Assembly (NCBI GenBank): GCA_963675745.2
Contig: CAXXWX010000015.1
Coordinates: forward strand, 160,001-224,000
From: Phycisphaerae bacterium
GTDB taxonomy: Bacteria; Planctomycetota; Phycisphaerae; UBA1845; Fen-1342
Direction of reading: 5' to 3'
DNA length: 64,000 bases
A program made the translations under genes and the position numbers. Below the pieces are notes generated by a model. That model made no database searches. It saw only the letters and a list, made by a program, of their open reading frames with translations, and was not told where the DNA came from. This document shows positions 12,348 through 64,000 of the stretch, one piece after another; within the stretch, counting starts at the first letter, position 1; each line of letters starts with the position of its first letter.

Positions 12348-12390
12348 TGGTGAGAGGTTTGTTTGTAGTCTTCACACGCAGGTGGTTGGC

Positions 12391-42161: not shown

Positions 42162-42740
42162 GTGGGCGAGCCTTCCGATCCAACGGGACTATTGGTGGGT
42201 GTCTCGTCTGGTGATCGTGAGGCAGAGAATCGCCTGACACCGCTGGTCTATGCGAACCTGCGCGCCTTGGCCGCAAAAATGATGCGCCGCGAGCGCGCCG
42301 ATCACACGCTCCAACCGACGGCACTCGTCCACGAGGCGTACCTGAAGCTGATCGACCAGACGCGTGTGACCTGGAAGAACCGGGCCCACTTCTTCGCGGT
42401 GGCCGCGCAGGCCATGCGGCGCATCCTTATCGATCACGCCCGCAAGCGCGCCGAGGTAAAGCGTGGAGGCCGTCAGTCGCGGCTCGCTTTCGACGAACAG
42501 CTCGTGGCCGAGTATCAGCGCTCGGTAGACCTCGTGGCCCTGAGTGAGGCGCTGGACCGACTAGCCATGCGCGATCCGCTCCTGGTACGCATCGTCGAGC
42601 TGCGCTTCTTCGCCGGACTGACTGTCGCCGAGGCCGCCGAGGTCCTGGGAATGTCCAGCAGCACCGTCGAGCGCGAGTGGCGCTGCGCGCGCGTCTGGCT
42701 GCGCGCGGTTCTTTCCAACGAGGAAGACGCCGGCACATAG
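42162..42740 (+). CDS. ECF sigma factor, TIGR02999-type
   Basis: LTPLVYANLRALAAKMMRRERADHTLQPTALVHEAYLKL...RAHFFAVAAQAMRRILIDHAR...LRFFAGLT. Confidence 0.92.
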   Translation: MGEPSDPTGLLVGVSSGDREAENRLTPLVYANLRALAAKMMRRERADHTLQPTALVHEAYLKLIDQTRVTWKNRAHFFAVAAQAMRRILIDHARKRAEVKRGGRQSRLAFDEQLVAEYQRSVDLVALSEALDRLAMRDPLLVRIVELRFFAGLTVAEAAEVLGMSSSTVEREWRCARVWLRAVLSNEEDAGT

Positions 42741-42748
42741 GGGGCCCC

Positions 42749-45700: not shown

Positions 45701-46048
45701 TCAGACGACGGCACCTACGTGGCGGCGATCAGCGACGCCAGCAAGATTGATCTGATCCACCTGGGCCGCTGCGCGGTTGTGGCGCGCCTGGAGTGCCCGT
45801 TGCAGCTAAACATGATCGGCGTAAGCTGCACGCCGGACGGCACACGAGTCATCTTCCCCGGGCGTGCCGGGCACATTCTGCATGTCTGGGACCTGCCTGT
45901 TGTCCGCGAGCGCTTGGCGACGATGGGACTGGATTGGGAGGCGCCGCCATTTCCCGCGCCGGCGGCACCAGCTTCCGCTCGGCCGTTACGCGCTGAGTTG
46001 TATCTCGGCAAACTTGAACCGCCCGGTGACCGTGGTCAGAGCAATTGA
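42749..46048 (+). CDS. Ser/Thr kinase with TM helix and C-terminal WD40 propellers
   Basis: IFRVALDRPPDEQQAVLAEACAGDVALRAEVERLL N-terminus; HRDLKPGN, DFGVA; repeated SPDG...WD units; 8 bp after the ECF stop. Confidence 0.93.
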   Translation: MGREPSERALQIFRVALDRPPDEQQAVLAEACAGDVALRAEVERLLAADATQTFLQPPDRTCVVGPIAPDPDDGLVGREIGRYRIVRRIASGGMGTVYEALQPKPRRSVALKIVRADLASESALRRFVHEAEILARLRHPAIAQVYEAGSHAGMPYFAMEYIPSAQTLIEFAEDHKLPTRRRLEMFAEICDAIHHGHQRGVIHRDLKPGNILVDEAGRPKVIDFGVARATDADVTIATLQTDVGQVVGTLRYMSPEQCEGDSAALDTRSDVYALGVVLYELLTGRFPYDVTNHSPFEIPQIIRECAPRRPSSISRLLRGDVETIVLKALEKDRTRRYQSASELAADIRRYLHGQPIEARSDSRFYMLRKQVQRYRIPLAVASGFVLLLIGSSIVAWTLYFQSQQRLWESYLSQAHARRWSGKPGCRVESLTALRKAAAIRPSAALRDEAIACMALVDAEFTNRIDYSSLDPAPNVAADPDVQRVMLWWNTGETLLKRVADNREVLSLAAQGGFRARPLPRFSADGKYLARPGESACEIWEIDPARLIDTFAVRATDYLQPLDFSRDSCEVAVGAADGSVAIHSLRTGETHTLPPVHAPVHRIHYSPAVDTLATCSLSSSDVLLRDANSGEVLQVLEHPAAVRTVAWSKDGRQMASACSDQCAYVWDLGTTQKRWTLHGHTGPVTAIGFGCDDTILYTASWDGTTLLWDPRLGRRLLTLQGCGLGFASAGPWLGLRTFQPGLAFVRARVYGNDAFRTICDHPAESQDGCQWVRVSPDGRLAATASGAGVRLWDLEHNRAVAYLPIGFTNSVVFQPDGLALITVAPRRILRWPLRIDDQVLHVGPPESIVLDTLGNFWEACLSADGNKLAVSADLRRVVVADLDHPADVRIFEPHVGVCSVALSPDGRWLATGAWKGSDAKVWDVASGEVVHVVPTSDNVRAGFSPDGKWLVTSEAEYVLWEVGTWRPVARFPRGGYTSVSAAASFSDDGTYVAAISDASKIDLIHLGRCAVVARLECPLQLNMIGVSCTPDGTRVIFPGRAGHILHVWDLPVVRERLATMGLDWEAPPFPAPAAPASARPLRAELYLGKLEPPGDRGQSN

Positions 46049-49400: not shown

Positions 49401-51317
49401 CGGCTGGTTGTCGGTCACCAGCCCGGCAATCGAATCGGTGTTGAAGTCGGGCGTGAGCGCGACGACGGGGTCCATTTCCTCGGCCAGCGCGGGGGCCGCG
49501 TTGTCGATGAAGACGGCGAGCTCGTAGGTCTCGCCCGGGCCGACTTGCGAAGCGGTGCTCTGCGGCTTGACCTCGATGTAGTAACGGCCGCTGGTGCGCG
49601 CGATGAAGAAACAGGCTTGCGCGGGGTAGTCCGGCGGATCTTCGCTCGTGTTCGAGTCACTCACGTCGCTGATCAGGACGTCGCCGTCCGGATCGTAGAT
49701 CACCAGCTTGCCGTGAAACGCGTTCGGGTCGTCGTTGGCCGCGTCAAACCCGGTCGAGTCGCGCTCCGGGTCACCATCGAAGGCGATGAACACGCGGTCA
49801 CCGACCACGGCATCAAACGCGTAGAAATCGCTGTCATCGCTGCGGTCGATCACGCCGGCGTAGTAGTGCTTGCCGGTGTAATCAGCGCTGTCCATGTCAT
49901 CGTTCAGCTCGCAGCCGACGAGCGGATTTCGCGTCGCGGGGATCACACCGTTGTGGAAGCGATAGCGGTGAACGGTCTTCGTGTCGTCCACGTCATTGTC
50001 TTCCACGACGAAGTAGTGCGTGCCGGCACCTATCATCTTCGCGCCGGCGATTACCGAGCTGGACGTGCTGTAAACGTAGTGCAGGTCGTTGATGGGCGAG
50101 CTGATCCCGTCGCCGTCGTCGTCGTCAAACTCGATCACGGTCGAGCCGTCGGTGCCGAGGAACGACAGCCACGTATCCAGGGTGCTGTTGCTCGAGCCGC
50201 CGAGGTTGACCCAGGCATACACGCGGTCGCCGTCCAGGCCGGTCACCGCCCAGTAATCGGCGTCGGCCGGACCGACGAGTTGGCCGCCGTCGCGCGGATC
50301 GCCGACCGGCGTGGCGTTCACGGCCGAGCCGTTCGGCTCGATCTCGCTGAGCTCGTACTCGATCGCATCATCGATGATGAGCGCGTACGGCCCGGTGGTG
50401 TATGTGGTGCTGCCGTTGTCGACGTAGATGTAGTAGTCCGCTCCCGCCAAGAGGGTCACGACAACGAGTTCGTGCTTGGCGCCGCTGGTGCCGGCGGTGC
50501 TGTGGTTTGATGCACCAAGACACCCATCCGGAAAGACCGGTGGACAGGAGTCGTTGACGTACAGCACGCCGTCAAAGCCGCTGCTGATCAGCTCCAGCGC
50601 GTAGTCACCGCTGGCGGGGGCCGTGAACTTGTACACATGGTCGTTGCCCGGCGCGGTGGTCGGCGTCGTGCCCGACACGCCACAGCGCCCGGTGCCCTGC
50701 ACAAACGAATAGTCGTGCACGGCATTATCGATGTTGTTGAGCCGCAAGACCGGGAGTGGGCCGCTGAGTGTCTCGGCCGCGGCACAGTCGTCCGGGTTTG
50801 TGAGGTTCAGCTCATCGACGATCAACGTGAAGACAAAGTTGTCGTACGTCGCGTCGTCGTGGTCGATGCCGATGAGGTAGGTCTCATTCATCGTCAGGGC
50901 AACGTCGAGATTGACCGGCCGCGCGCTGCCCGGCGCCCGCACGCCATCCACCTCCGTCATGGTCGAATCCAGCACGTAAATCACGAAGCGGCGGTCAGAC
51001 GACCGTAGCGGCGCGTGGTGCCAGGGCGCAAGCTGGATGCGATACGTGGCTGTCACCGTCGGCGTGAAGCTGTAAAAGACATCCGGGCCATCGACGTACG
51101 GGTCGATCGCCGGCAACCCGGGGAGGGTGGTTATGCTGTCATCGGCCAATACGGTAGTACCGTAGATGATGGTTGGTAATGGGCCGCTAATCACAGCGGC
51201 GTTGTTTGGATCGTCGTTGGCCGGGCTCGGTGGCAATGCCCAAGCGGCGGCGGTCAGCCCGCCGATCGTGAGCACACTGACGAGCACCCGCAGTCTGGTC
51301 CCCAGAACGTCCTTCAT
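46497..51317 (-). CDS. Large secreted protein with PPC-like and three proprotein-convertase P-like domains and dockerin-like C-terminus
   Basis: Signal peptide; EIEPNGS/ELNDD-type PPC-like units; three (I/V)xxVxxxxx(I/F)...DDxA...G.(W/Y) P-domain-like units; [17 protein letters not shown]. Confidence 0.85.
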   Translation of the reverse strand: MKDVLGTRLRVLVSVLTIGGLTAAAWALPPSPANDDPNNAAVISGPLPTIIYGTTVLADDSITTLPGLPAIDPYVDGPDVFYSFTPTVTATYRIQLAPWHHAPLRSSDRRFVIYVLDSTMTEVDGVRAPGSARPVNLDVALTMNETYLIGIDHDDATYDNFVFTLIVDELNLTNPDDCAAAETLSGPLPVLRLNNIDNAVHDYSFVQGTGRCGVSGTTPTTAPGNDHVYKFTAPASGDYALELISSGFDGVLYVNDSCPPVFPDGCLGASNHSTAGTSGAKHELVVVTLLAGADYYIYVDNGSTTYTTGPYALIIDDAIEYELSEIEPNGSAVNATPVGDPRDGGQLVGPADADYWAVTGLDGDRVYAWVNLGGSSNSTLDTWLSFLGTDGSTVIEFDDDDGDGISSPINDLHYVYSTSSSVIAGAKMIGAGTHYFVVEDNDVDDTKTVHRYRFHNGVIPATRNPLVGCELNDDMDSADYTGKHYYAGVIDRSDDSDFYAFDAVVGDRVFIAFDGDPERDSTGFDAANDDPNAFHGKLVIYDPDGDVLISDVSDSNTSEDPPDYPAQACFFIARTSGRYYIEVKPQSTASQVGPGETYELAVFIDNAAPALAEEMDPVVALTPDFNTDSIAGLVTDNQPGDTGVCTVELYAETNLMLVNLTGLGTGTATFDIVLTDPNQGGSGKIRVIDCTGNAACDLVMIDIDPPVCAGSAVAGRSVRTLDGPYFIPDNDAVTGIDVPLVIGDAGTITDVNLTATFETTSCADLDIRLTSPDLTEVEIQTDRGSSLAFNITDATWDDDADELMPLLSGDEPYTGTWLPEGTLADFNGGPANGTWILNVRDDYNTQNGGSRLVYAKLDVVATFAGPQTFAGLATDSGGFDAGIQSIVLTGAVNAQLNLPPGFTPGDTVVEYTVTLIDSTLNGSGTVTVTDMQDNTCQSIVNLTGFADGTGPANTGGVTTDLRFEQEIQADLPYGNPAGASSTITVAEPFLVGEVEAEITIDTLDVGRLAATINKSGEFASLINRVGMDDRASAGLTKNTLWITLDDDAPVADDAHEEPALGTIPFLGVHQPDGRGEFIGDGITTDKRDNMMFALANQSAAGPWKVNAADHRMIGTSRTELRRWALTLKSPCGPERYVGVAQELAPESGVQSIAPAAGATNLTVVASFTPGDEVVEYRVELTDPNFAGAGDIEIYDVAGNVTIVPVALAAISADRSPPIITGSYDPATAKFIGTATDNGPGDSGIVAVEVAPYGENIELVMVTPDPPAGAGSVDFIVGVALGINGRGYIRVTDACGWRSYILVEMDAEAPVCTGSINHSKRYISSDLPQPIPDNNVVGVSSSIVVADTDVIEDVNLTFNITHAYDDDIDLTLIAPRVINLLSDIGSTGNNFIDTTLDDEAAAPIPDSSSEAPFTGTYQPEDGPALFALDGLSADATYVLRVADDKDNDTGTFDSWSLTIESSTFPERYDGRVEEPIFRDTGVCAVELLPGASNLVLTVDPFTNGDTIVRYSVELTPGGAVGEGSVRVLDCVGNECVTPILLYRYEVGDLNCDGFVNNGDIDPFVTAITDPDGYVVQYPDCDLRLADMNGDSYVNNGDIDDFVSAISS

Positions 51318-51740
51318 CGGGAGATCCTCCGTTCCTTATGGAAAACGCGTTTGACGAACAGGGTCGCGAAGTAGATAGATCGATGGCCCAAGTCCCTGTA
51401 TGCGGCCTCGGGCCAATCCGCACCTAGATTGGCTTGACGCCGTACGAACTTGCTGGCCCGGACCGAGCGCTTGGCATGCTGCCCGCGTGATCAGCGCTGA
51501 CTATCGGCACAGCACGTCATGCGGGCCACTTCGCACGGCGAGTCACCATGAAGCCTGACCCAACTCCTCCGCTGACACCGGCACGGCATGCTACCCGCGT
51601 TCATTGTAGCGTTTCATTCAAGGGGAAGGACAACAAAATCCCCGCCCGTAACCGGTTGCGGACACCCAGGTGAGCAAATCGCCCCTGGGTCAGAACGCCC
51701 CCCAGGCGGCTCAGCAGCGCGCCGCGCTGCGTAGGCACGT

Positions 51741-52652
51741 TTATGGCAGCTTCTCCAGCACCGCCACACGCTCCTCTCCGGGAGGGTGCGTGCGGTAGTG
51801 GTCACGCAGCTCCTTGCCAATCCGGCCGAGCGTGCCGTCAGGTTCGGCATGCTGCGGCGACGGGATCAGTTCTGTCATGCGGCGTAAGAACGCCAGACGC
51901 TCCTGCTTGGACCGGCCGATTTTCCGCATGGTGTCATAGGACCACAGATCGGCTTCAAACTCGTGTTTCTCACAGTAGCCGACGGCGATGTTCCGGTAGA
52001 GGAACATAACGACTCCAGCGCCCAGGTCACCGCCGACCTCTCCCGCGGCGCCCGCATACCCAGCGCCGCGCAGCACGTGCTTGTGCTCGATGTGGCCAAT
52101 CTCGTGACCGAGGACAAACTGGAGTTCGGCGTCGCTGCGTGTTGCGTCGATCAACCCGCGATTGACGTATACATAGCCCCCCAGATGCGCAAACGCGTTA
52201 ATCTCGTCTGAGTCGATGATGTAAAACGAGTAAGTCAGCTCCGGACGCCGGGAATGGACGAGCAAGGGCGTCGCCAGTCGTTTCATGCGAGCGAGCTGCT
52301 GCGGATTGTTCAGGAGCGTGTGCTCGCGTCGCACGGTCTGATGCACCTGCCGGCCATACTCGATCTCCTGCTCGATCGTGAGCGGCAGGATCTCACCGCC
52401 GATCTCGTCGGCGGCGCGCGTGATCTCGTGGAAGACCTCGGCCGCGGTTGAGACCGCCGCGGGGCCGTCTTCCGGCAGACGTTTTCGCACAGCCTGCTCC
52501 CATTCGTCGAGTTGCTCCTTGGTAAGGTCGATGGCGGCCTCACCGCTACCCTTGACGGTGTCGTAGCTGTTGCGCCGGCAACCACGCGTCATGAAAGCCG
52601 CAAGGACCGTGATCGACAGCAGGATGAGCAGGAGCCGGGTGGTTGCGTGCAT
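51741..52652 (-). CDS. M48 family zinc metallopeptidase, membrane-anchored
   Basis: INAFAHLGGYVYVNRGL, VLGHEIGH, EFEAD, THPPGEER. Confidence 0.9.
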   Translation of the reverse strand: MHATTRLLLILLSITVLAAFMTRGCRRNSYDTVKGSGEAAIDLTKEQLDEWEQAVRKRLPEDGPAAVSTAAEVFHEITRAADEIGGEILPLTIEQEIEYGRQVHQTVRREHTLLNNPQQLARMKRLATPLLVHSRRPELTYSFYIIDSDEINAFAHLGGYVYVNRGLIDATRSDAELQFVLGHEIGHIEHKHVLRGAGYAGAAGEVGGDLGAGVVMFLYRNIAVGYCEKHEFEADLWSYDTMRKIGRSKQERLAFLRRMTELIPSPQHAEPDGTLGRIGKELRDHYRTHPPGEERVAVLEKLP

Positions 52653-52670
52653 GTCTACGCCCTTTCCGTA

Positions 52671-55076
52671 TCAAGGCTCGCGCGGGCCGGCCCCCGGCCG
52701 CGGCGCGCCAGCCGTCCAGTTCTCGTTAATCCGGCGGGCAACCGTCCGACAGGCCCGTTCCACCAGGGAATCAAATGGCTCGACGGTTCCCTGTGCGTCA
52801 CTCTTGACCGCGACCGTCGGCGTGTCGGGCGTCTTGACGATCGGCCCGAATTCAAAATCCGTTACCGTGTCCAGCACGCTGAGCTCGAGCGCATAGTGCC
52901 AGTTGAACCAGCCCGCCGGATAATCGCCGCGCTGCATCCCCGTGCAGGCGGCGGTGGCGTGACCGCAGATCAGGATGTCGCAGGCGTTTTCGCGCGCCGT
53001 GCGAACGAGGGTGGCGCGATCGGCCGTGGCGGGCACGTCCACACTCACGATCCGCGCGGCCTGGTCCTGCAATTCACGAGCCAGCCAGCGCTCCACCGTT
53101 CCGCGCTCGGGTGAGGCATCCGCGGAAAGCGTCTGCGCTACGACCACCATGATGGCGGGCTCCCCTGCCAGCAGCGGCGGCCGCCAGAGGTCTTGCGCGG
53201 TGACCGTATACTCGCGCTCGATCACGCTGTCAGGTGTGTGCGACCGCAGGGTGACGTATACGGTGCGACCGTCGGTTGGCAGGTCGCCGACTTCGCAGTA
53301 CTCCCCGCGCACCGTCGTGCTGCAAAGGTCATCGAGGCGCGGCGAGGTTCCAAGCAGCAGGTCACGGCGCTCCACCGCGGTTCCATTGCTGACTGCAAAA
53401 CGCACGCTCGGCCCGTTGAGCTGGGCGCCGTCGCGCGGACTGGTGATCTCGGCGGCCACTGGCTCGGGGGGGGTGTCCGTGTCATCGACTACGCTCGCGG
53501 AGGCAGGCTCGGAAACCGCGTCTCCGGCGCGCACAGACGCCGCCGTTGGCGCCGACAGACCGGCCCGCGTGCTCCAGGCCAAAACCGCCAGCAGAAACAC
53601 AACCGGCACGAGGGCCACGGCCCAACGGGTGGATCTCCGTCTGCGGCCGGCCGGTCGGGGCGGTTTATCAGCGGACTTGGTCGGCGGCACGACGGTACCA
53701 CCATCGCGGTCCTCGTGCAGCCAGCGCGTTAGATCGTCAATCAGCGCGGCACAGTCGGCGTAGCGCGCAGCGCGGTCTTTGGACAAGCACTTCTGGCAGA
53801 TGGCCGCCATGCGCGCCGGCACCGACGGCACACACTCGCGCGGCGGCTTGGGCTGCACGCAGACGACCTGGTGGATGGCCTGTTCGAGCGTATCGCCATC
53901 AAAGGCCGGCGTGTACGTCAACATCTCGTACAGCGTGGCGCCGAGCGAGAAGATGTCGCTGCGGGCATCGATCGGTTCGCCGCGCATCTGCTCCGGACTG
54001 CCATAGCGCGGCGAGCCGAGCAGATCACCGGGCTGGGTCATGCCGGTGTCCTGGTTGAGCTGCTTGGCCAACCCGAAATCCGCGACCACAATGCGGCCAC
54101 GATCGGTGAGCATTACATTCGCCGGCTTGATATCGCGATGGACGACGTCGCGCTGGTGTGCATAGCGCAGGGCCTCGGCAATCTCGATGGTCCAGCGCGC
54201 CACCTGACGGTGGTAACGGTCGTGAAACCACGCCGGTTGTCGCGCGCGCAGGGTCTTGGCGTCGAGTGTGTGGGCGCGCAGCTCCGCGCAGCGTTTCGCC
54301 ACGTCCGTCAGCGTCGGCCCATCGACAAGCTGCATTACGATGTATGCCAGATCGTCGCGCTGTCGGTAGCGGTGGATGCGGACGATGCCCGGATAGTCAA
54401 GTCTCGCCGCCCGTTGCGCTTCCAGTTGGAAGCGGCGTCGGAAGCCTTCCTCCAGGAACAGGCTCGAGCGCAAGACCTTCACGGCAACCGGGCGATCCAG
54501 CGAGCGCTCGTAGGCACGGTAGACCGTCGCCTGTCCGCCGCGCCCGATCAAACCCAGAATCTGGAGATCTTCGTCCAGCACCGGGTGCGGGGATTCAAGC
54601 TCCGGCGGTGACTGGGATGGCGACGAAGGTTCACCGCCCGGTTCGAGGAAATCGGGGCTGTCTTCTTCATCTTTCAGATACAGTTCAACCGCCTCGCGCA
54701 GCTCAGGGTCCGCCCCGCAGGCCTCGGTGAGATACGCGGCACGACGCTCCGCCGGCAGCTCCCGCACGCTGAGATAGAGCGCTCTGATGCGCTGGTGGCG
54801 GCCGCGTCCGCCTGTTGTCTTATCATCCGGCGGCGGCGTGGCCGGGCCGCCGACAAACGTCTGCTGGCTTGGACCGTGGAGGATATCGGCGAGCGTCGGC
54901 CCGTCCGCGCCGCGCCGCGTCTCGTACTCCTGCCGGCACCGCGCGCAACCGCGCAGATGAACGCGCAACCGTGCGCGCCGCTCACGAGGCAAGCCGGCGC
55001 CAAACAGGGCTTCGTAATCAGAATCAGTCAGGCACTCGCTCATCGTCTCTCTCTCGCTGACGTCATGCGTGCTCAT
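52671..55076 (-). CDS. Transmembrane Ser/Thr kinase with ZAS motif and extracytoplasmic alpha/beta domain
   Basis: HLRGCARC; GRGGQATVY, VAVK, HRDIKPAN, DFGLAK; TM WAVALVPVVFLLAVLAW. Confidence 0.92.
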   Translation of the reverse strand: MSTHDVSERETMSECLTDSDYEALFGAGLPRERRARLRVHLRGCARCRQEYETRRGADGPTLADILHGPSQQTFVGGPATPPPDDKTTGGRGRHQRIRALYLSVRELPAERRAAYLTEACGADPELREAVELYLKDEEDSPDFLEPGGEPSSPSQSPPELESPHPVLDEDLQILGLIGRGGQATVYRAYERSLDRPVAVKVLRSSLFLEEGFRRRFQLEAQRAARLDYPGIVRIHRYRQRDDLAYIVMQLVDGPTLTDVAKRCAELRAHTLDAKTLRARQPAWFHDRYHRQVARWTIEIAEALRYAHQRDVVHRDIKPANVMLTDRGRIVVADFGLAKQLNQDTGMTQPGDLLGSPRYGSPEQMRGEPIDARSDIFSLGATLYEMLTYTPAFDGDTLEQAIHQVVCVQPKPPRECVPSVPARMAAICQKCLSKDRAARYADCAALIDDLTRWLHEDRDGGTVVPPTKSADKPPRPAGRRRRSTRWAVALVPVVFLLAVLAWSTRAGLSAPTAASVRAGDAVSEPASASVVDDTDTPPEPVAAEITSPRDGAQLNGPSVRFAVSNGTAVERRDLLLGTSPRLDDLCSTTVRGEYCEVGDLPTDGRTVYVTLRSHTPDSVIEREYTVTAQDLWRPPLLAGEPAIMVVVAQTLSADASPERGTVERWLARELQDQAARIVSVDVPATADRATLVRTARENACDILICGHATAACTGMQRGDYPAGWFNWHYALELSVLDTVTDFEFGPIVKTPDTPTVAVKSDAQGTVEPFDSLVERACRTVARRINENWTAGAPRPGAGPREP

Positions 55077-55088
55077 CTTGTCACCTGT

Positions 55089-56345
55089 TTAGTCCGATCG
55101 TCGCAGCCGGGTCTCGATCCGATCGCCGCGCGCGTCGAGCATTACGAGTTGGTAATTGCCGAAACGCATGCGGGTGAGCAGATCTTGCAGTTGCTGTCGC
55201 GTGAGGCGCGTTCGCACGGCGAGCGTCACGACCTCCCCGATGCTCTCGTGTTCCTGCACGTGCAACACGTGCTCCCGCGCCGCAATAGCTTCGCGCATAC
55301 TCAGTGTTCTTTCCGGGCTGGTGTTCTGGATGGTGACGAAGACGGTCTGGCCGAACTGCCCAAGCTGGGCATAGGCCAACACCAGCTCCTCGACGCACCG
55401 CAGGCCTAATGCGCGACCGCTGTGCTGGAGGGCACGAACCGCGCCTTCATCGCCCGAATATTCCGAGGCCCAGGCTTCGCTGACCGGCGGCAACCCGCGC
55501 AGCAGCTCACCAGTCGCTGACGAGTGAATCACGGCCTGTGTCGAGGTCTTGTAGTCGGTCAGCCGGCGGGCCGGATTCGGATCGCCGGGCCGACCGGGGA
55601 TTTCGTGGACCTGTGCGCTGCCGACGACGTAAAACGGCGCGCCCAGATCGGCCTGCGCGTGGCGCAGCGCCGCGGCGTTGGCCTCGCCGTCGGCACGCGC
55701 GATCCCCATGGCCTTCAATTGCTCCCAGCGGCTGCGGACACGCACATCGAGGTTGAACTCCTTGAGTGCGCGCTCCAGTTCCGCGGCGACGTGCCCGCCG
55801 GCTTCCGAGCCCGGTTCGTCAAACCAGACCATCAGCCGCGGCGGGACTTCCGCGCTGAGCACCCGGCTGAGCGCGTCACAAAGCTCGCGCAGGCGCATCT
55901 CGTCAAGCTCGGCGGTGATCCTGACCGTGTACTCCTCGTGGGCGAAGCGGGGGCGGCGTCGGTCGGTGATCCGCACGTCGAACACACACTCACGCGCGAG
56001 CAGCCGGCGCGCCGCCGGGTAAATCCAGCCCGAGCGCAGCGGTTCCAGTGCCGGCCCGGCGTAACGCTGAAGGAAATTCTCGCGCGCGTTTTGCAGAGCC
56101 TCCTCCAGCCGATCGCCACGGGCGCGCCCCGAAACCACGCGCCCCGGGCCGGGCGCCGAGAGCGTCGCCGCCGGCACCGGCGCGGTGCTTGCTTCCGGCG
56201 GCGGCGGGCTGGCGTAGCTCGGTGGTCGCCGCCGAACCGGCTGCGGTGATCGGTATCGCGCCAGGGGATCCTCATCGCGGGCCGTGCAGTTGGTTGTCCC
56301 AACAAGCATGATGGCCAAAAGCACCGTTGCGAACGCGCGATGCAT
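55089..56345 (-). CDS. Exported protein/lipoprotein with FlgT/CsgG-like alpha/beta domain
   Basis: Signal peptide with Cys; ALQNAREN, YTVRITAELD, PRLMVWFDE...GAPFYVVGSA. Confidence 0.65.
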   Translation of the reverse strand: MHRAFATVLLAIMLVGTTNCTARDEDPLARYRSPQPVRRRPPSYASPPPPEASTAPVPAATLSAPGPGRVVSGRARGDRLEEALQNARENFLQRYAGPALEPLRSGWIYPAARRLLARECVFDVRITDRRRPRFAHEEYTVRITAELDEMRLRELCDALSRVLSAEVPPRLMVWFDEPGSEAGGHVAAELERALKEFNLDVRVRSRWEQLKAMGIARADGEANAAALRHAQADLGAPFYVVGSAQVHEIPGRPGDPNPARRLTDYKTSTQAVIHSSATGELLRGLPPVSEAWASEYSGDEGAVRALQHSGRALGLRCVEELVLAYAQLGQFGQTVFVTIQNTSPERTLSMREAIAAREHVLHVQEHESIGEVVTLAVRTRLTRQQLQDLLTRMRFGNYQLVMLDARGDRIETRLRRSD

Positions 56346-56347
56346 GG

Positions 56348-57529
56348 CTAGTGACCTCCTTCGGCAACGCTGCCGACAAGCACAGGTTCGCCGCGACCGG
56401 ACGGCTGCGCGCCGTGACGCGCCTGCTGGGGCATCTGAACCGGAGTGATAACGGAGCCGTTGCTATCGAGCGCATCCGACACGCGTTCGATGGCCCGGCG
56501 GGAGAGGCGGATGTAGCCGTCGTCGTCCTCGCGCTCGTCGTCGTCGCGTTCCTTGACGACGAGAGCCTGACGGTAGTGTGTCAGCGCACCTAACAGGTTG
56601 CCGCTTTTTTCGGCAATCAGCCCGAGACCGAAGTGGGCCTGGTAATCGTCGGCGCTACGGCCGACCAGCGCCAGCTCAAACGCGCTTCTCGCCGCTTCGT
56701 ACTCGCCGCGCTCGATCAGCTCGACGCCCGCGCGGCAGTGTTTGTTGCGCGATGATTCGAGCGGGATGCTCACGGTGCGGGCACCACCGAGCAGGCCGCG
56801 CACGAATTCATCCGCCGCTTCCTCCAGCACGGGGGCCACGAGCCGATCAACGGGGGGCATCTCGCTGAAGTCACGATGGCGCGCCAGGAAACCGACGAAG
56901 TTCGGCTTTAGCTCCTCGCGCTTCGGTTCAGCGCGAATGGTCCGCTGACACAAGACACTCCCGTTGAAAAGCTCAATGCGGACCCGCCCGCTGGGACAAA
57001 TCTGGCGTCCGACAGCGCGGAACACTTGCCGCCGGTTTTCGCCAACCGCCCGCTCGACGCCCCATTGCGACTCTGTAACCTCGACGGTGCAATCGATCAC
57101 GACAAGAGCATCCGCCCCTATCAGCTTGCCGTATTCGGCGGCGGCCCCGGGACGAACCAGGTCAGATCGCTGCAATTTGTGTTCGTCGAGCACGCGTTGC
57201 ATTTCGGGGCCGCGCAAGACCGTCTGCACATGCAAACCATCCTGCATGTCACGCCGACCCAGCAATGTGCCGATCCGGTTGGCAACCATCGGCGCGTAGT
57301 TCTCCACGTAAGTCCGCGACCCGCTGACCGGGCTGTCCGCCTTGAATGGCGGCCGCGCCGGCTGCGACGCGTCATAGACCACCGCGATGGTTTGGATTTC
57401 AGCGGGCAACTCCACGCGCGGCCGCTGGTGGGAAATCGCGACCAGCGCCTTCTTATGACAGCCCGCGCCACCGGGAAACAGGAACACAATCACAAACACC
57501 AACGCCAGTCCCGTACATCTGCGGTTCAT
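56348..57529 (-). CDS. CsgG-like lipoprotein with C-terminal TPRs
   Basis: RBS GGAGG; lipobox GAGC; RGPEMQRVLDEHKLQRSDLV...YGKLIGADALV; TPR AHFGLGLIAEKSG. Confidence 0.78.
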   Translation of the reverse strand: MNRRCTGLALVFVIVFLFPGGAGCHKKALVAISHQRPRVELPAEIQTIAVVYDASQPARPPFKADSPVSGSRTYVENYAPMVANRIGTLLGRRDMQDGLHVQTVLRGPEMQRVLDEHKLQRSDLVRPGAAAEYGKLIGADALVVIDCTVEVTESQWGVERAVGENRRQVFRAVGRQICPSGRVRIELFNGSVLCQRTIRAEPKREELKPNFVGFLARHRDFSEMPPVDRLVAPVLEEAADEFVRGLLGGARTVSIPLESSRNKHCRAGVELIERGEYEAARSAFELALVGRSADDYQAHFGLGLIAEKSGNLLGALTHYRQALVVKERDDDEREDDDGYIRLSRRAIERVSDALDSNGSVITPVQMPQQARHGAQPSGRGEPVLVGSVAEGGH

Positions 57530-57615
57530 CGGTTGACCTCCCATTAGTTGTGTCTTGGCGACGCGAATACCCACTGGCACCATGCCTGACAGCCACCGCG
57601 CCACGTGTCCGCTCT

Positions 57616-57655
57616 ATGAGGCGAAATCGGGGAACGGCGGGCGCGAAAAATCGTC
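57616..57655 (-). promoter_or_regulatory. Candidate promoter motif (copy B)
   Basis: Minus strand GACGATTTTTCGCG-N18-CGCCTCAT. Confidence 0.5.
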
Positions 57656-57926
57656 GCCGTAGTGCGGGAGGAGTTCGCACGCTGTCCTGCCGCAACTGTC
57701 ATGTGCCACGGAATCGAGGGAGTGGAGTGCCAGTGTCGTTGCCAGCTCGGCTGTTTGGCGCGTATGGCTGCGTAGCGGCCTGCGCCTCGCAGGCCGTCGA
57801 TGTATGACGAGTGTCCTCAACCTCCACAGACCTTCGTCCATAAACGGCGTTTCCAAGATCGGGCGGCCGGCGAGGCGCCGGCCGTTACACGTTACGCCGA
57901 AGCATGGCGCGAAACACGGAACGCCC

Positions 57927-60497
57927 TTAGTGGGAACGGTGCTGGGGCGTTATGCGCTTGGCGGCCGGCCAGCGGGCTTGCAGTCGCACGAGCAGGCGGC
58001 GCAGTGCCGAGCGGCCTTCTTCCACAACCGGCAGAATGTCAATCCGCCCATACGGGCCGTCCTTACGGTGCAGGAAATAAACGCCGGCCGCGCTGTAGAT
58101 GCTCGTGAACACCAGCAGTGCCACGATGCTCGCAAACCACCCGTGCGAGTGCGGATCGGTCGGGAAGTGCTGCGGGTCTAGCAGTGAGCGCAAGGCATCG
58201 AGCCCCCAGTAGCACGGGATCAACGCCTTGCCAATCAGTGCCAGCGTCCCTTCCAGCGGGCCCAGCGCCTGTGTGAACAGGATCTGCGGCATGATCAGGA
58301 CCACCATCGTTATGACCGCCTTGTCCGTCGTGTCTACGGCACAACTCGCCGCCAGCCCGAGTGCGGTCGCACTGAACGCGATCAGGAACATGGTGATCAG
58401 CAGGGCCAACTCGCTGCCGGCGGCCAGGTCGAGCGGTCCGCCCCAGCGAACAAACAGGTACATCACCAACACCTGCACCGCATTGACCACGCCCAACACC
58501 GCCAGCTTGCTGCCCAGATACGGCAGGATGTGCAGCGTGGCGAAACGCTCGTGCAAGTAGATGCGCAGCTCCTTCACGACCTCTCGAATCGACCCGAACA
58601 GGCCGAGGAAGAACATGCCCACCACCACGGCGAACGTGATGTTCATCTGCCGCGCGCCTTCGGTGGCCCCTTGAGGCAAAGATCCGAAACGGTAGCTCAC
58701 CAGCACGCCGAGTATCGGCGCGAGGCCCAGCAGCAGCGCCAACGCGCGCGCGTCGTTCAACAGCACGCGCGTAAAACGCCGCAACAACACGCGAAACTGC
58801 GTGGCGTACTCGGGTGAGCGCACCACGCGCAGCAAATCCCCGGGCCGGAGCTTGGTACGTCGTTGTTCAAGCGCCGCGTTGTCGGTTTGCGCCTCGAGAC
58901 AGCGACCAGAGCAAGCCCGCGTTTCCTCGAAGCGCTGGGCCCACTCCTCGGCGGTATGGCGCGGTTCACGCCAGAAGACCTCCCGGATATTGTCCACGCC
59001 GAAGTGTTGCTTGAGCTCGGCTGGCGTCCCGTAAAACGCCAGCCGCCCCTGGATGAGATAGATCACCTTGTCGCAGGCTTCGAGGCTGTCGGCGTAGTGC
59101 GTGATGCACAGTGTGGTAACACCGCTGGCGGCCACATCGCGGAAGATCCGCATCATCTCGGCCTCAGTCCGCAGATCCAGACCACTGGTGGCCTCGTCCA
59201 GGAAGAGCGCATTCGGCCGACTCAACAGCTCGATCGCGATTGACACCCGCTTCCTCTGCCCCCCCGACAGGTTGCGCACGGCGACGCCGCGCCGTTCAAA
59301 CAGGCCGACATCACGCAGCACGCGGTCTACGTTTTGCTCGAGCTCTTCGGTTGACGTATCCGGCGGCAGACGGATTTCCGCCGCGTAAGTGAGAGCATCG
59401 GCGACGGTAAGCGCATCGTGGAAGATCAGCTCTTGCGGGACGTAGCCGATGCCGCCCTTGAAGGCGTCGAAGTGGTCGTAGAGGTTGCGGCCGTTGTAGA
59501 GCACCGCGCCCGCGGTCGCCGGCCGACGGCCGTTCATCGCGTCCATCAGCGTCGATTTACCGCAGCCCGCCGTGCCGAATATGCCGACAAACTCCTGCGG
59601 CGCGATCTTCAGACTGACGTCGGCCAGTAGTGGCGTCAGGCGCCCATCGTCCCGGCTGACTACCTGCTTGCCGAGACCCACCAGCTCTATATTGATGCCG
59701 GCGTCGCCGACCTGTTGGGCATGTTGCACGGCGTGCGACGTCAGTTGCCGCCCGTCAAACGCAAGGTCGAGTGATCCGAACCGAACATGATCACCCGCCC
59801 GCAACTGTGCCCGGCCGCGCAGCCGTTGCTCGTTAACGAACGTGCCATTGGCTGACCGCAAGTCACGGATGATCAGGCGCTCATCACGCCGTGTAATCTC
59901 CGCGTGACGACGCGAAACGGTCGGATTCGCCAACTGGCAATCACAATCCTGCCCGCGGCCGATGATCGTGACGGGCCGCTCAAGCCGGATCGCGATGTTC
60001 GGCATCGCCGGTGCATGTCGGCGGCGCGGATCAATCAGTGTGTCCAGCACCTCGGGATCACGAGCCGGGCGCCGCCCCCCCGATCCGGCGCCTGGCATCG
60101 CTGTCTTGGAGGGATCCGTTCGCACGTCGAGATCAGCCGCGGCCGACAGCGGCTGGGCGACCCGCCCGCGCTCGCTGTCGCCGGCACACGACTGCAAGGC
60201 CACGCGCAGAGTCGTGGCGCCAAGCCGCAGCGCGTCGCCGTCGCCAAGCGCCGTCGAAGCGGACACCTGCTGCCCGTTGCGATATGTACCGGACGTGCTG
60301 CCCAAGTCCATTAGCACCAGAACGTTTGACTCGTAGCTGATCTGGCAGTGGACACGACTGACCGCGGTGTCGTTCAGCACGACATCTGCGTCCTCGCCAC
60401 GCCCCAGCAGAATATGTCCGCTGCCCGAGCACTCACGTTCGAAGATCGGCCGCGAGTTGGCATGCTGGCCGGCGGTGAGCGTCAGCCGGTAATGCAT
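57927..60497 (-). CDS. FHA-FHA-ABC transporter fusion (Rv1747-like architecture)
   Basis: Two FHA domains (GR...VSRxH...DLxSxxGT), Walker A GTAGCGKST, LSGGQ, FLDEATSGLD, C-terminal ABC-2 TM helices; RBS GGGAGG. Confidence 0.93.
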   Translation of the reverse strand: MHYRLTLTAGQHANSRPIFERECSGSGHILLGRGEDADVVLNDTAVSRVHCQISYESNVLVLMDLGSTSGTYRNGQQVSASTALGDGDALRLGATTLRVALQSCAGDSERGRVAQPLSAAADLDVRTDPSKTAMPGAGSGGRRPARDPEVLDTLIDPRRRHAPAMPNIAIRLERPVTIIGRGQDCDCQLANPTVSRRHAEITRRDERLIIRDLRSANGTFVNEQRLRGRAQLRAGDHVRFGSLDLAFDGRQLTSHAVQHAQQVGDAGINIELVGLGKQVVSRDDGRLTPLLADVSLKIAPQEFVGIFGTAGCGKSTLMDAMNGRRPATAGAVLYNGRNLYDHFDAFKGGIGYVPQELIFHDALTVADALTYAAEIRLPPDTSTEELEQNVDRVLRDVGLFERRGVAVRNLSGGQRKRVSIAIELLSRPNALFLDEATSGLDLRTEAEMMRIFRDVAASGVTTLCITHYADSLEACDKVIYLIQGRLAFYGTPAELKQHFGVDNIREVFWREPRHTAEEWAQRFEETRACSGRCLEAQTDNAALEQRRTKLRPGDLLRVVRSPEYATQFRVLLRRFTRVLLNDARALALLLGLAPILGVLVSYRFGSLPQGATEGARQMNITFAVVVGMFFLGLFGSIREVVKELRIYLHERFATLHILPYLGSKLAVLGVVNAVQVLVMYLFVRWGGPLDLAAGSELALLITMFLIAFSATALGLAASCAVDTTDKAVITMVVLIMPQILFTQALGPLEGTLALIGKALIPCYWGLDALRSLLDPQHFPTDPHSHGWFASIVALLVFTSIYSAAGVYFLHRKDGPYGRIDILPVVEEGRSALRRLLVRLQARWPAAKRITPQHRSH

Positions 60498-60695
60498 CGG
60501 TCTCGGCACCTCCCAGTATGGCGGGCGACGGGCCGCCGGGCGACCGCGCCGCGAACACCGATGTAGTGCGGTTTCAACACAGTTCTGACGTTCTACGTCG
60601 GCCACGGGGGGCCGACGCTACTTCTGCGTCTGACGTTCTGCCACTTCTGCGACGAGCCGTCGTGCCGGCGGCCAAGTGGCAAGTCGCTACTTGGA

Positions 60696-60775
60696 GAGGC
60701 GTCAAACGCCGCGTTCCCCGCGCAAGAAAATTGTGACGATTTTCGCGTGGGGCTGCTTATCACTTCACGCCTCAT
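60696..60775. promoter_or_regulatory. Symmetric divergent promoter element (copies A and C)
   Basis: GAGGCG..CCCCGCGC..GAAAATTGT-G-ACGATTTTC..GCGTGGGG..CGCCTC imperfect inverted repeat between divergent genes. Confidence 0.55.
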
Positions 60776-60790
60776 TGGCCGGAGGCACGA

Positions 60791-61528
60791 ATGACCATGC
60801 ATCGACCACAATCAACGCTCCAGCTTCAGGAAGCCGCGCGTCCGACGCAAACGCAACCACAGCGGGTACCCGCACGCGTTGTTCCCCGGGACCTGAACCC
60901 GGCGGCGCTACCGGCCGGCGAACGCGCGGCTTCGTCACGGGATCAAACGGCACCCGCCACCGCCGCCGGACGTCCCCGGGGGCGGGCCTGGAAGCTGCTC
61001 GGCGCTGCGGCCGCCGCCCTGGTCGCATGGGCCGTGCTGTTGGCGCCATCTCCACCTGATGGGCCCTCGCACCCGCGCTACCACCACCACATTGAATCTC
61101 CGGCGACAGAGATCATTGTCGGTGACGAGGACATCGACCGGGCCAACACTCAGGCAGCGCGCACCGGTAACGAGGCGACTCTCGCATCCGAACCGCTGGT
61201 CGCAACGCTCACGCCGGGCGCGCGGGCGGAGATACGCGCCGGTGATGCGCGCTATTACCACATCTTCCTTTTTGATAACTGCGACGAAGACGGCGACATC
61301 GTGCAGGTGTACTTCAATGGGGCGCTGCTCGGGGAGGTCCCGATTACCCACGCCGGCACGACTATCTCCGTGCCAGTCACGCAGGGGGCGGCCGGCCTGC
61401 TGCAAATCGTCGCCGTTCACGACGGCCAGGGTGGCATCACGGTCGCATTTCAGACCAGCGCCGGGCGCCGTTATTCCCGGATTCTCCAGGTCGGCGAGAG
61501 CCAGGTGGTCAACGTCGTGGCCCCCTGA
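60791..61528 (+). CDS. Single-pass membrane protein with C-terminal beta-rich domain
   Basis: RBS GGAGG; Pro/Ala-rich N-terminus; TM LLGAAAAALVAWAVLL; FDNCDEDGDIVQVYFNG. Confidence 0.75.
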   Translation: MTMHRPQSTLQLQEAARPTQTQPQRVPARVVPRDLNPAALPAGERAASSRDQTAPATAAGRPRGRAWKLLGAAAAALVAWAVLLAPSPPDGPSHPRYHHHIESPATEIIVGDEDIDRANTQAARTGNEATLASEPLVATLTPGARAEIRAGDARYYHIFLFDNCDEDGDIVQVYFNGALLGEVPITHAGTTISVPVTQGAAGLLQIVAVHDGQGGITVAFQTSAGRRYSRILQVGESQVVNVVAP

Positions 61529-61717
61529 CGCTCAACGGGAGCAAAGCCGTGGTCAACCGTGTCAAAACACTGCTTCAGCAATCACCGGCGTTTCGCTATG
61601 CCGCGCTGGTCGCCGCAATTGGAGTGGCGGTAATGCTGCTCGGGGCGGGCCCCGGCAATACAAGCGCGGCGGGATGACCATGAACCGGAGCACACACGGA
61701 TGAGGACCGGAGGCACC

Positions 61718-62992
61718 ATGCGAGCAAGCCAGCAGAGCGGTCTGGCCGGGCCGCTGGCCAACCCGACCGTGCGGCTGGCACTTCAGGCGCTGATGCTGTT
61801 CTTCATCCAGCGTTACCTCTATGTGCGTCTGCCTTTGCTCACAGTGGCAATCACCGTTTTTGCGGGGTTGGTCGCCGTAACCGCTTACCTGCTGCGGTAT
61901 CGGCGGGCCCCGCTCGTGAAGTGCTATCGCCACACAGCTTGCCGCTGGTTCATCGATCTCGTCTGTCGCTGGACGCGCGAGCAACCGCCGCTGACTGAGC
62001 CCTGCGCTGACTCCGACAACTCACCATCCCCGACAGTGCCGCCGCCGTGTCCGCCACAAACGCCGGCCAAGCCCGGCGCGCGCCCCAGCTCGACAACCGA
62101 GTTGCTGGCGACCGACGGCCTCGATTTCGAGTTGTTGCGCGATAACCTCGCGGACGTCGTTCGCGGATTCGACAATAACATCGGTACGGCCGTGGGGCGC
62201 ATACGACAGAATATGCGGCTGCGGACGGATCGCACCAACCAGGTCGCCGACGCGCCGCTGGGGGTGTTCCTGATCGTCGGTCCGGAGGGTGTCGGCAAGC
62301 GGCATTTTGCGCAGCAGCTCGCGCGCGGCCTTTACCGCTCAGCCGGCATCACCAGCATCGACCTGCGCCGTACCGCGGACGCCGCGGACAGCGTCGATAG
62401 CGTGCTCGGTTTCGACGATCGCAGCGATGGGACGCTCATTCGCGCCGTGCGCACACAGCCGTGCCAGGTGCTGCTGCTCGAGCACGTTGATTGCGCGAGT
62501 CCGGAGCTGCTCAATCGTCTGCGCGGCGTCTTGCTCAACGGGTTCCTGCGCGACGAGCGAAACGGGCACACCATCGCGTTCTCGAATTGTGTGATCGTGT
62601 TGACGACCACGCTTGGCACTGAGGCGTTGGCGCGTCTCGAGGTCGATGACGCCGAGGGCTCTGGCGCCCACCGGCAAACCGCTGATGTCCTGGCCGCGGC
62701 CACGCGTTTGCCAAAGCCGTTCCTGGCTCAGGTCCACGACATTTTGTCGCTACAGCCCCCGCCTCCGCCGCAAATGGCAGAGGTCGTGGCGCTCGTAATG
62801 GAGCAGGAGTGCGATCGCCATCGGCTGCTGCTGCGTTATGTCGCCGCCACCATCATTGCCGACGAGGTGCTCGCACTGGATCGAGAGCATGGCTATGCGC
62901 CGCTGCGGGCGCGCGTGCGCCGACGCCTGCGCGACCCGATTGACCGCGCCCGCCAGGCCGGCGCTGCACATTTGACCCTGCTTGATACGTGA
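61718..62992 (+). CDS. Membrane-anchored, degenerate ClpB-D2-like AAA+ protein
   Basis: RBS GGAGG; N-terminal hydrophobic helices; PLGVFLIVGPEGVGKR, VLLLEHVD, GFLRDERNGHTIAFSNCVIVLTT. Confidence 0.85.
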   Translation: MRASQQSGLAGPLANPTVRLALQALMLFFIQRYLYVRLPLLTVAITVFAGLVAVTAYLLRYRRAPLVKCYRHTACRWFIDLVCRWTREQPPLTEPCADSDNSPSPTVPPPCPPQTPAKPGARPSSTTELLATDGLDFELLRDNLADVVRGFDNNIGTAVGRIRQNMRLRTDRTNQVADAPLGVFLIVGPEGVGKRHFAQQLARGLYRSAGITSIDLRRTADAADSVDSVLGFDDRSDGTLIRAVRTQPCQVLLLEHVDCASPELLNRLRGVLLNGFLRDERNGHTIAFSNCVIVLTTTLGTEALARLEVDDAEGSGAHRQTADVLAAATRLPKPFLAQVHDILSLQPPPPPQMAEVVALVMEQECDRHRLLLRYVAATIIADEVLALDREHGYAPLRARVRRRLRDPIDRARQAGAAHLTLLDT

Positions 62993-63004
62993 GGAGACAC
63001 TCAC

Positions 63005-64000
63005 ATGGCCGAGGACATTCTCGCACGCCTGACCGACAAGCAAGTCCTGCTGCAACTGCTGGAGCAGGCTGACCGCGGCGCACGGCGAAAGATCATTGAA
63101 TCCGACATGTGCGCGCATCTCAGCGCGCGGGTCCGCGGACAGGATCACGTAAACGGTGATCTCGCTCGCCTGATCCGCCTGGAGTGGGGCAAGCAGAGGC
63201 GCACCAAGCCCATTGCCAACCTGCTGTTCCTCGGGCCGCCGGCCGTCGGCAAGACCGAGCTGGCCAAGGCCCTGGCCGAGTACCTGTTCGGCGACGAACG
63301 CAACATGCTGCGATTCAACGGCCCCGACTTCAGCGGGCCCGAGGGCAAAACCCGGCTGATCGGCACGCCGACCGGATATGTCGGCGCCGATGCCGGCGGA
63401 CAGTTGACCCGCCCGATGTTCGGCAACCGTCGCCGGCTGATTCTGTTTGACGAAATCGAGAAAGCCTACGACGGCGTTTATGACCTGTTTCTGCCGCTCC
63501 TGGGTGAAGGGCAACTCACCGAGCAGGGATCCGGACGCGTTGCCGACTACTCCGAATCGATCGTCGTGATGACCACTAACGCCGAGTTTGAGGCGATCGG
63601 CAAGATCACTGAGCAACACGAAGACGAAAACGAGTGCATGGCGGCGGTGAAGGCCCACCTGACGGCCGCCAAGGTCTTCCGGCCCGAGTTATTCAGCCGC
63701 ATCGACCGCGTTTATGTGTTCAAGCCGCTTGAGGGCGTGGTCGTCGCCGAGATCGCGGTCTTGAAGATGGTCGATCTGGCCGCCTCCTATGGCCTGACGC
63801 TTGAGTATGTCGAGCCCGACCTGGTTTTCGAGGCGCTGCAGAAGACGGCCAAGTTCGAACGCTACGACGCCCGCGAAGTCGAGCGCATGCTCGTGCCGAT
63901 GGTCGGCGAGGCGCTCCTGCTCGCACGCGAAGCCGGCGCCCGCCGTATCCGCCTCGAAGTGTCGGAAGACGGCGTTCTCGAAGTAAATCCCGCTCAGGCG
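63005..64000 (+). CDS. Stand-alone ClpB-D2-like AAA+ ATPase (runs off the window; absent from the ORF track)
   Basis: RBS GAGGAG; my translation is open to 64000: RVRGQD, LFLGPPAVGKTELAKALA, RLIGTPTGYVG, ILFDEIEKA, MTTN, FRPELFSRID. Confidence 0.92.
   Translation, partial: MAEDILARLTDKQVLLQLLEQADRGARRKIIESDMCAHLSARVRGQDHVNGDLARLIRLEWGKQRRTKPIANLLFLGPPAVGKTELAKALAEYLFGDERNMLRFNGPDFSGPEGKTRLIGTPTGYVGADAGGQLTRPMFGNRRRLILFDEIEKAYDGVYDLFLPLLGEGQLTEQGSGRVADYSESIVVMTTNAEFEAIGKITEQHEDENECMAAVKAHLTAAKVFRPELFSRIDRVYVFKPLEGVVVAEIAVLKMVDLAASYGLTLEYVEPDLVFEALQKTAKFERYDAREVERMLVPMVGEALLLAREAGARRIRLEVSEDGVLEVNPAQA

Follow-up and report, generated by a model that had tools for sequence, protein, structure and literature searches.

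We identified a conserved, probably export-related gene module at the right-hand end of a 64,000-nucleotide stretch of DNA from a Phycisphaerae bacterium, hereafter the window, which covers positions 160001-224000 of contig CAXXWX010000015.1 (C15) in a genome that is 91% complete. The conserved core consists of six genes in the order single-pass membrane protein (SP), membrane peptide A, predicted catalytically dead AAA+ protein (AAA1), live AAA+ protein (AAA2), coupling ATPase and membrane peptide B, and the genes after peptide B vary between loci and are toxin-like in domain content. The window edge cuts this operon ahead of the coupling ATPase, peptide B and the cargo. The first-pass annotation, made from the letters of the window, had proposed an unnamed, recurring and export-related system in this place, which was borne out by core loci in five phyla and by the finding that the literature we searched (subscription papers and supplements lying outside the search) holds no description of it. 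Its proposed centre, a Ser/Thr kinase, an FHA-ABC exporter, CsgG-like lipoproteins and an M48 peptidase, shifted: what does not vary is the set of genes on the right-hand side, together with the coupling ATPase and toxin-like cargo outside the window, and peptide A, the continuation of the operon past 64000 and a type VI secretion system (T6SS) cluster on another contig, C1, of the same genome had all been overlooked. The module is real, conserved and undescribed. We give an even chance to the reading that the locus encodes an exporter acting without VirB proteins, in which cargo would be chosen through its tail by a coupling ATPase, a live AAA+ unfoldase would be tethered by a dead partner, and the helices of the ATPase would form the pore together with the peptides.

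All core genes lie on the plus strand. SP (60791..61528), with a C-terminal beta-sandwich in its structure model, is followed by the previously unannotated 42-aa peptide A (61549..61677), which is conserved in relatives, by the membrane-anchored AAA1 (61718..62992; AAA_2 E 1e-12, with transmembrane (TM) sequence) and by the soluble AAA2 (63005..64000, its end 6 bp beyond the window at C15 224006; ClpB E 1e-51). Beyond the edge, the gene of the 660-aa VirD4/TraD-like coupling ATPase (C15 224025-226007) begins 18 bases past the AAA2 end, and the 38-aa peptide B, with an invariant Trp-Met near its end, follows at C15 226045-226161. Next come a 319-aa open reading frame (ORF) at C15 226255-227214, the predicted cargo, and a low-complexity ORF of 128 aa at C15 227234-227620. 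Inspection of the downstream DNA for a known system, which had been suggested earlier, revealed no T6SS cluster at the locus; the coupling ATPase, peptide B and the NADase-like cargo were found instead.

A scan of species genomes anchored on the coupling ATPase resulted in 47 loci distributed among Planctomycetota, Acidobacteriota, Pseudomonadota, Gemmatimonadota and Binatota. Forty-two loci have upstream sequence of 3.2 kb or more, and 37 of them keep the order SP, AAA1, AAA2, coupling ATPase, five loci with too little flank being left out of this count; the five exceptions are two rearranged loci (L003 and L004), one in which no SP was seen (L041) and two with a partial ATPase match (L043 and L049). 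A reciprocal search anchored on SP yielded 38 metagenome loci, 11 of them with at least 4 kb of downstream sequence, and the coupling ATPase of this family is present in eight of these 11, while L150 instead has a divergent TraG-type ATPase upstream. A variant order, live AAA+ then SP then a membrane AAA+, occurs in L135 (2442-7693), where a Sel1-repeat protein follows, and in L144, with no coupling ATPase in the sequence available. The core loci are flanked mostly by ordinary chromosomal genes. A phage origin was considered and set aside: no usable locus was found on viral contigs, and matches to PHROG families were weak only.

The coupling ATPase is a type IV coupling protein by its features, with intact Walker A and B motifs and an N-terminal TM anchor. 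Three Pfam families of such proteins (TrwB_AAD_bind, T4SS-DNA_transf and TraG-D_C) score above cut-off, the Walker motifs are invariant across 49 aligned sequences, and the sole sequence match in the PDB is DotL (E 7e-8). Of 8000 candidates scored, 234 are relatives at E<=1e-10, with 40-63% identity among the 120 listed; within the phylum the protein was found in one of 301 genomes, the one containing the window.

The two AAA+ proteins form a pair in which only one is intact. The earlier description of a divergent single-pass gene followed by two ClpB D2-only AAA+ genes held for the genes themselves and for their match, since both align only with the D2 part of ClpB/ClpV models, and failed for the first AAA+ protein, which is degenerate in Walker A and Walker B and lacks the pore loop. 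This division recurs: the Walker B Asp-Glu pair is present in none of 41 AAA1 copies versus 39 of 40 AAA2 copies, and Walker A in all 40 of the latter. Fifteen proteobacterial loci have a pair from another family, two AAA2 copies tested there matching EccA/SpoVK/CbbX models with E<=4e-61; the EccA model TIGR03922 gives E 2e-68 and 5e-75, both below cut-off, and SpoVK and CbbX match equally well. On a quick tree of 44 coupling ATPases the swap between ClpB-D2 and EccA/CbbX families maps to a single branch, and the survival of the dead/live arrangement across it argues for selection acting on the job rather than on the family. Threading of polypeptide tails is an activity of ClpB D2 as well as of CbbX.

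SP is present in 40 of 48 loci. Its C-terminal domain is modelled as a beta-sandwich with invariant aspartates (predicted local distance difference test (pLDDT) 86), for which no clear structural relative emerged, the closest fold match being a calcium-dependent carbohydrate-binding module at only Z 6.0 (root-mean-square deviation (rmsd) 3.0, 87 residues aligned); it has 151 relatives, and none of the 120 listed has a Pfam domain. We considered SP as a VirB8 or VirB10 counterpart and did not adopt this, neither fold being among the matches listed, which is not proof of absence, and Atlas matches staying under 0.9. Peptide A follows SP and in Proteobacteria forms the N-terminus of a protein of about 600 aa (alignment of 26 sequences). 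Peptide B lies directly 3' of the coupling ATPase in 40 of the 47 loci (alignment of 35).

The link between the core module and toxin-like cargo is well supported. Scans of 83, 93 and 29 cargo and neighbour proteins, a part of all ORFs of the loci, returned by cluster representative Zeta_toxin (a cluster in 12 loci), Endonuclea_NS_2 (7) and ADP-ribosyl cyclase (6), besides papain-fold Gln_amidase, Ntox4, Ntox46 and the lysozyme-like VgrG3-like_C; at least seven toxin families on a shared module are a trait of polymorphic toxin systems. An Imm74 gene adjoins one cargo (L006), and small ORFs stand beside cargo in some loci. The cargo model of the window locus (pLDDT 74) has Tne2 as its best fold match (Z 10.0, rmsd 2.6, 106 residues aligned), followed, above all others, by Rhs1-CT, Tse6 and two fungal NADases, and Foldseek matches it to a fungal NADase with E 3e-4; we therefore predict from the model a NADase of the Tne2/Tse6/TNT fold, which carries a basic low-complexity tail.

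The tails have features in common, and some recur on otherwise different proteins. We assembled 45 cargo proteins by cluster or match and, after removing three open-ended sequences and four near-duplicates, compared 38 with 714 own-genome ORFs having no hydrophobic stretch. Lys or Arg within the last three residues is present in 30 of 38 cargo proteins versus 257 of 714 controls, a net charge of at least +2 over the last ten residues in 28 versus 136, and a hydrophobic fraction of 0.16 or less over the last 50 residues in 26 versus 28; just one of the 38 has a signal-like hydrophobic stretch. The tail of the NADase-like protein is 53% identical over 59 aa to that of a cargo in the metagenome locus L113, the N-terminal parts being unrelated, and in L010 two different cargos bear a common tail. 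According to PMC5675462, most substrates of type IV secretion systems (T4SSs) are marked at the C-terminus by a short signal of positive charge, and PMC6536674 states that VirD4 binds toxin C-termini.

Several further observations concern the cargo arrays. Tail-only, low-complexity ORFs having no toxin domain occur in L009 (14154), L012 (14360), L016 (7065) and L022 (12105). About half of the zeta-like genes of L003, L008, L014, L015, L019, L023, L032 and L040 have no Walker A, and the proteins retain either a short motif of the form hydrophobic-Arg-Leu-Gly or an end helix rich in arginine; judged from these features, they may be regulators rather than toxins. A hidden Markov model (HMM) of the arginine-rich helix was tried as a marker and abandoned, being non-specific past about 11 loci. 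The 128-aa ORF downstream of the window resembles, by eye, the tails of zeta-like proteins in planctomycete loci (HMM E only 0.34). A cluster of membrane-anchored S8 proteases adjoins cargo in seven loci, six acidobacterial and one of Binatota (L006, L007, L009, L010, L012, L016 and L028), which we take to be reminiscent of MycP; a search for dispersed cargo in the window's own genome returned S8 protease matches only.

The exporter reading builds on the gene order, the dead/live pair, the peptides, the cargo families, the tails and the absence of VirB genes among the neighbours scanned at the loci, all of which were observed. The live AAA+ ring, held at the membrane by its dead partner, would unfold the cargo in the manner of threading by ClpB D2 and CbbX, and an inner-membrane pore could be formed by the ATPase's own helices and peptides A and B by analogy to EccC of type VII secretion. 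SP would act on the periplasmic side, and a CsgG-fold ring is a candidate outer-membrane exit only in those lineages carrying CsgG-fold lipoproteins. The initial step would be binding of the basic C-terminal cargo tail by the coupling ATPase, a role modelled on substrate choice by T4SS coupling proteins as given in PMC5675462. The reading as a whole, a toxin exporter that recognises tails and is laid out like a type VII system around a type IV part, has in our estimate an even chance.

A VirB-type channel was sought in 46 genomes, i.e. the window's own and those of 45 of the 47 loci, L043 and L049 being left out. The VirB4 model TIGR00929 matches in 19 of these, 13 at E<=1e-15, with none of these strong matches at the loci, and six weakly; in the window's own genome the weak match is the coupling ATPase itself, and the second VirB4 family, PF19044, gave none there and none in any of five genomes searched. 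Likewise, VirB10/TrbI (PF03743) was absent from the five genomes searched, including the window's own and the closed genome G320, and from the neighbours scanned. Compared with VirB/VirD4 T4SSs, including the X-T4SS with which Xanthomonas kills bacteria and toxin substrates of the VbhT/PezT type, the locus shares a coupling ATPase anchored in the membrane, toxin cargo signalled at the C-terminus, C-termini of positive charge and toxin families in common (zeta besides lipase and nuclease types), as these are described in PMC6536674, PMC5675462 and PMC12624023. It differs in that none of VirB1-11 is among the scanned neighbours, strong VirB4 matches occur in only 13 of the 46 genomes, the dead/live AAA+ pair, the membrane protein with its beta-sandwich and the two micropeptides are extra parts, and Pfam reports no XVIPCD or BID domain.

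Type VII (ESX) secretion involves EccA/B/C and MycP. An EccA/SpoVK/CbbX-like AAA+ protein (in the proteobacterial subtype), a single-pass partner, an S8 protease (in the cluster of seven loci) and TNT-fold cargo recur here, whereas the pump of the locus is VirD4-like and not EccC, AAA2 of the window is ClpB-D2-like and the hosts are diderm Gram-negatives; WXG100, EccB, EccD and EccC/EssC families were not found among the scanned neighbours, which comprise part of the ORFs. A parallel in how the parts work lies in a membrane pump of the FtsK/HerA superfamily combined with toxin export, as described in PMC3239186. TagQRST, PpkA, Fha and ClpV constitute an accessory set of the T6SS. Kinase, FHA, ABC and Clp-like parts lie near the core too, and the cargo fold is like Tne2/Tse6; the locus differs from a T6SS in having no sheath, tube, spike or baseplate gene and in its single-domain AAA+ proteins, one of them dead. 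These also differ from class I Clp proteins such as ClpB and ClpV, having neither the N-domain nor the two-module chain and matching the D2 part only. Torsin with LAP1/LULL1, a eukaryotic pairing of a single ClpB-D2-like AAA+ protein with a membrane-bound inactive partner, offers an analogy for the dead/live pair and is taken here as such. Membership of T4SS, T6SS and type VII systems fails on the features tested while the parts work like those of each. The stronger claim is of a self-sufficient, VirB4-free translocon and a new secretion class, in which the coupling ATPase would serve as pump as well as pore, unfolding of cargo would fall to an exchangeable dead/live AAA+ pair, two micropeptides would make up the rest of the channel, and gaining a basic disordered tail would be enough for a toxin (in plasmid relatives, a relaxase) to join; we hold it tentatively, at somewhat less than an even chance.

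Several findings weigh against a stand-alone exporter. Two SP-anchored loci, L135 and L136, carry SP and the AAA pair and no coupling ATPase in the sequence available. No outer-membrane channel is universal, CsgG-fold genes occurring in 13 of 47 loci as a raw count, and in many loci, that of the window included, an immunity gene is not evident next to toxins predicted to act in the cytoplasm. The control ORFs of the tail comparison were chosen by a composition heuristic, and one cargo cluster may have been joined partly through low-complexity sequence. The strongest result on this side is the presence of the T6SS sheath gene TssC in 34 of the 46 carrier genomes, unlinked to the core loci, which points to a possible dependence on another machine.

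Such a dependence is what an alternative model states: the module would be a cargo adaptor recruiting and unfolding tail-tagged toxins for delivery to a channel whose genes lie elsewhere, in most cases that of a T6SS and in some Proteobacteria that of a conjugative T4SS. TssC is enriched accordingly, in 13 of 16 planctomycete carriers versus 67 of 301 genomes of the phylum sample and in 10 of 10 acidobacterial carriers versus 30 of 100 other genomes of the same order, counts in which kin are not independent and genome size is uncontrolled. Four of the 12 TssC-negative carriers have VirB4 (among cultured carriers, Roseobacter sp. S98 has VirB4 and no TssC match, Seohaeicola saemankumensis DP4N-5 has TssC and no strong VirB4 match, and Neorhizobium sp. 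LjRoot104 is a third), the window cargo folds like T6SS NADases, and a related SP-AAA unit beside a TraG-type ATPase and MobQ on a 38-kb plasmid with no annotated VirB shows a pattern of channel borrowing. The T6SS clusters, however, are unlinked to the core: TssB/C, Hcp, VgrG and TssJLM were not found among the neighbours scanned at the loci. The earlier statement that the window lacks T6SS core genes stood for the locus and missed a separate cluster in the same genome, at about 138000-162000 of contig C1 (L050, L051), with TssA, TssB/C, an Hcp-like gene, its own ClpV and an extra TssB-TssC fusion gene. A gene family of the T6SS specific to carriers was sought in 11 carriers against 10 background genomes and none was found in more than three of the 11; the clusters look ordinary, and eight of the 11 have their own ClpV in the cluster stretch. 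Eight of the 46 carriers show neither TssC nor strong VirB4, VgrG also being absent in five of them, although all eight are metagenome-assembled genomes of unknown completeness, a point which in turn counts against the stand-alone reading. On balance we regard the adaptor model as unlikely, though as the likeliest of the alternatives.

The nature of the cargo is also compatible with an intracellular defence or addiction system, a membrane complex sensing attack or restraining toxins that kill the producing cell. The cargo consists for the most part of NADases, nucleases and zeta-like kinases, whose targets are cytoplasmic, immunity genes are often not evident, antitoxin-like small ORFs (67-100 aa) precede zeta-like genes, and the distribution is patchy, with one of 301 phylum genomes carrying the module and no strong match in 40 relatives. 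In contrast, lysozyme-like VgrG3_C domains, multidomain cargo of 1000-2000 aa, several cargos per locus and tails like those of T4SS substrates speak against it, and PADLOC 2.0 detected no complete named anti-phage system, giving single-component matches of kinase, FHA and P-loop type only. We judge this explanation improbable.

Coupling proteins are parts of conjugation machineries, and the module or a relative of it adjoins a MobA or MobQ relaxase gene in L041, in L150 and on plasmid NZ_CP088249.1. This complete 38-kb plasmid (L151), typed as non-mobilizable and with no annotated VirB, encodes at 5934-12513, next to TraG and MobQ, an SP, a membrane AAA+ protein, a secreted protein and an ORF that resembles peptide A and had no annotation; judged from its gene content, this may be a mobilisation unit that does without VirB. 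The plasmid represents the mobilisable MOBQ plasmids that bring a coupling protein of their own, and it has this related unit in common with the locus; it differs from the chromosomal loci, which hold toxin-like genes instead of a relaxase, and in its coupling protein, a classical TraG weakly similar (E 1e-4) to the locus ATPase family. L150 (7113-20204) contains a divergent version consisting of the TraG-type ATPase, SP, two AAA+ proteins, membrane and peptidoglycan-binding proteins and a MobA relaxase-helicase. Because these relatives adjoin relaxases, the gene neighbourhoods suggest a possible origin of the module in mobilisable elements, toxins perhaps having replaced the relaxase as tail-bearing substrate. 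That the present loci are a DNA mobilisation apparatus with toxins as passengers is nevertheless highly improbable: MobA_MobL is found in three of the 46 carriers and not in the window's own genome (a count for this one relaxase family), no full-length match of the coupling ATPase occurs among 72,556 plasmids, and the flanks are mostly ordinary chromosomal genes.

The genes to the left of the core, on the minus strand, are a recruited, lineage-specific accessory arm and not the engine, as their occurrence among genomes indicates: FHA-ABC and kinase genes also occur away from the core, and the accessory genes are optional among loci. The four tightly spaced leftward ORFs reported in the first-pass annotation are present with their gaps of 2, 12 and 18 bp. 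These encode a predicted lipoprotein with a CsgG-like domain and tetratricopeptide repeats (TPRs) (56348..57526, ATG start 57526, the longest ORF beginning at 57604), an orphan exported protein (55089..56345), a Ser/Thr kinase (52671..55076; Pkinase E 8e-44; single TM segment at 485-503) and an M48 metallopeptidase with N-terminal membrane anchor (51741..52652; Peptidase_M48 E 5e-25); the adjacent gene encodes an FHA-FHA-ABC-permease fusion (57927..60494), presumably of the Rv1747-type architecture. Pfam confirmed the fusion, the kinase, the peptidase, which has its HEXXH motif, and the TPRs. The CsgG label found no Pfam match and is backed by a local CsgG-family HMM (E 1e-4), and the FlgT-like label of the orphan remains unverified, the protein having no relative in Pfam, the PDB or the protein database. 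An upstream motif said to be common to the three transcription units proved weak, the longest exact shared strings being 9 nt, which is the mode of 3000 random pairs; a string of 13-14 nt, picked after the fact, occurs three times in the genome and twice here (57655 minus, 60735 plus), and no conserved copy of the motif was seen in relatives. Repeats in 51300-64000 do not exceed the apparent chance level.

That the two halves of the locus belong together, as had been supposed, is supported by FHA-ABC genes, which in 13 of the 17 planctomycete loci lie no more than 10 kb from the core, compared with close homologs in at least 14 of the 300 other genomes of the phylum, where three candidates were scored in each; the acidobacterial L006 also has one, and two more matches cover the ABC domain only. 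It is further supported by L113, where a single operon that diverges from the core combines FHA-ABC with two cargos, a zeta-like gene, an FHA-trypsin protein and a gene homologous to the CsgG-TPR gene of the window (23% over 238 aa, E 9e-5). The expected recurrence of FHA-ABC, kinase, M48 and CsgG-fold genes as neighbours was seen, each being optional: of the 47 loci, 13 have a kinase close to the core, which is weak evidence of linkage because kinases are common, five have an M48 homolog, all of them planctomycetes, and 13 have CsgG-fold genes. Most of the acidobacterial and proteobacterial loci examined lack the kinase, FHA-ABC, CsgG-like and M48 genes, and four genomes with FHA-ABC, examined widely, have no core genes, a kinase being close by in three. 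In planctomycetes, FHA-ABC, the kinase and M48 were probably added to the system for regulation or quality control. The phosphorylation-gated envelope assembly or remodelling by kinase, FHA-ABC, CsgG-like protein and M48 peptidase that was first proposed fits the recurrence of these genes beside the core, but it is barely credible given their optional occurrence, the stand-alone FHA-ABC and kinase genes and the coupling ATPase and cargo it ignores, and neither gating nor remodelling has direct support.

Three neighbouring features are probably unrelated to the system: a 1606-aa exported protein with proprotein-convertase P-domains (window 46497-51317, minus strand), a kinase-WD40 gene upstream of the locus (window 42677-46048, plus strand) and a pair of extracytoplasmic-function sigma factor and kinase downstream (C15 227633-231264, minus strand).

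To our knowledge, coupling proteins are thought to work solely with a VirB-type channel. How they recognize and move protein substrates is stated as unclear in a 2025 review (PMC12624023). If the exporter reading is true, a six-part VirB-less module with portable tails would amount to a new secretion route and offer a minimal system in which to study this coupling-protein question, and one that is available in cultured Proteobacteria of marine and soil origin. If the module feeds a T6SS instead, it would represent an unrecognised mode of T6SS cargo loading. Many genes annotated as hypothetical and two unannotated micropeptides in five phyla gain a proposed role.

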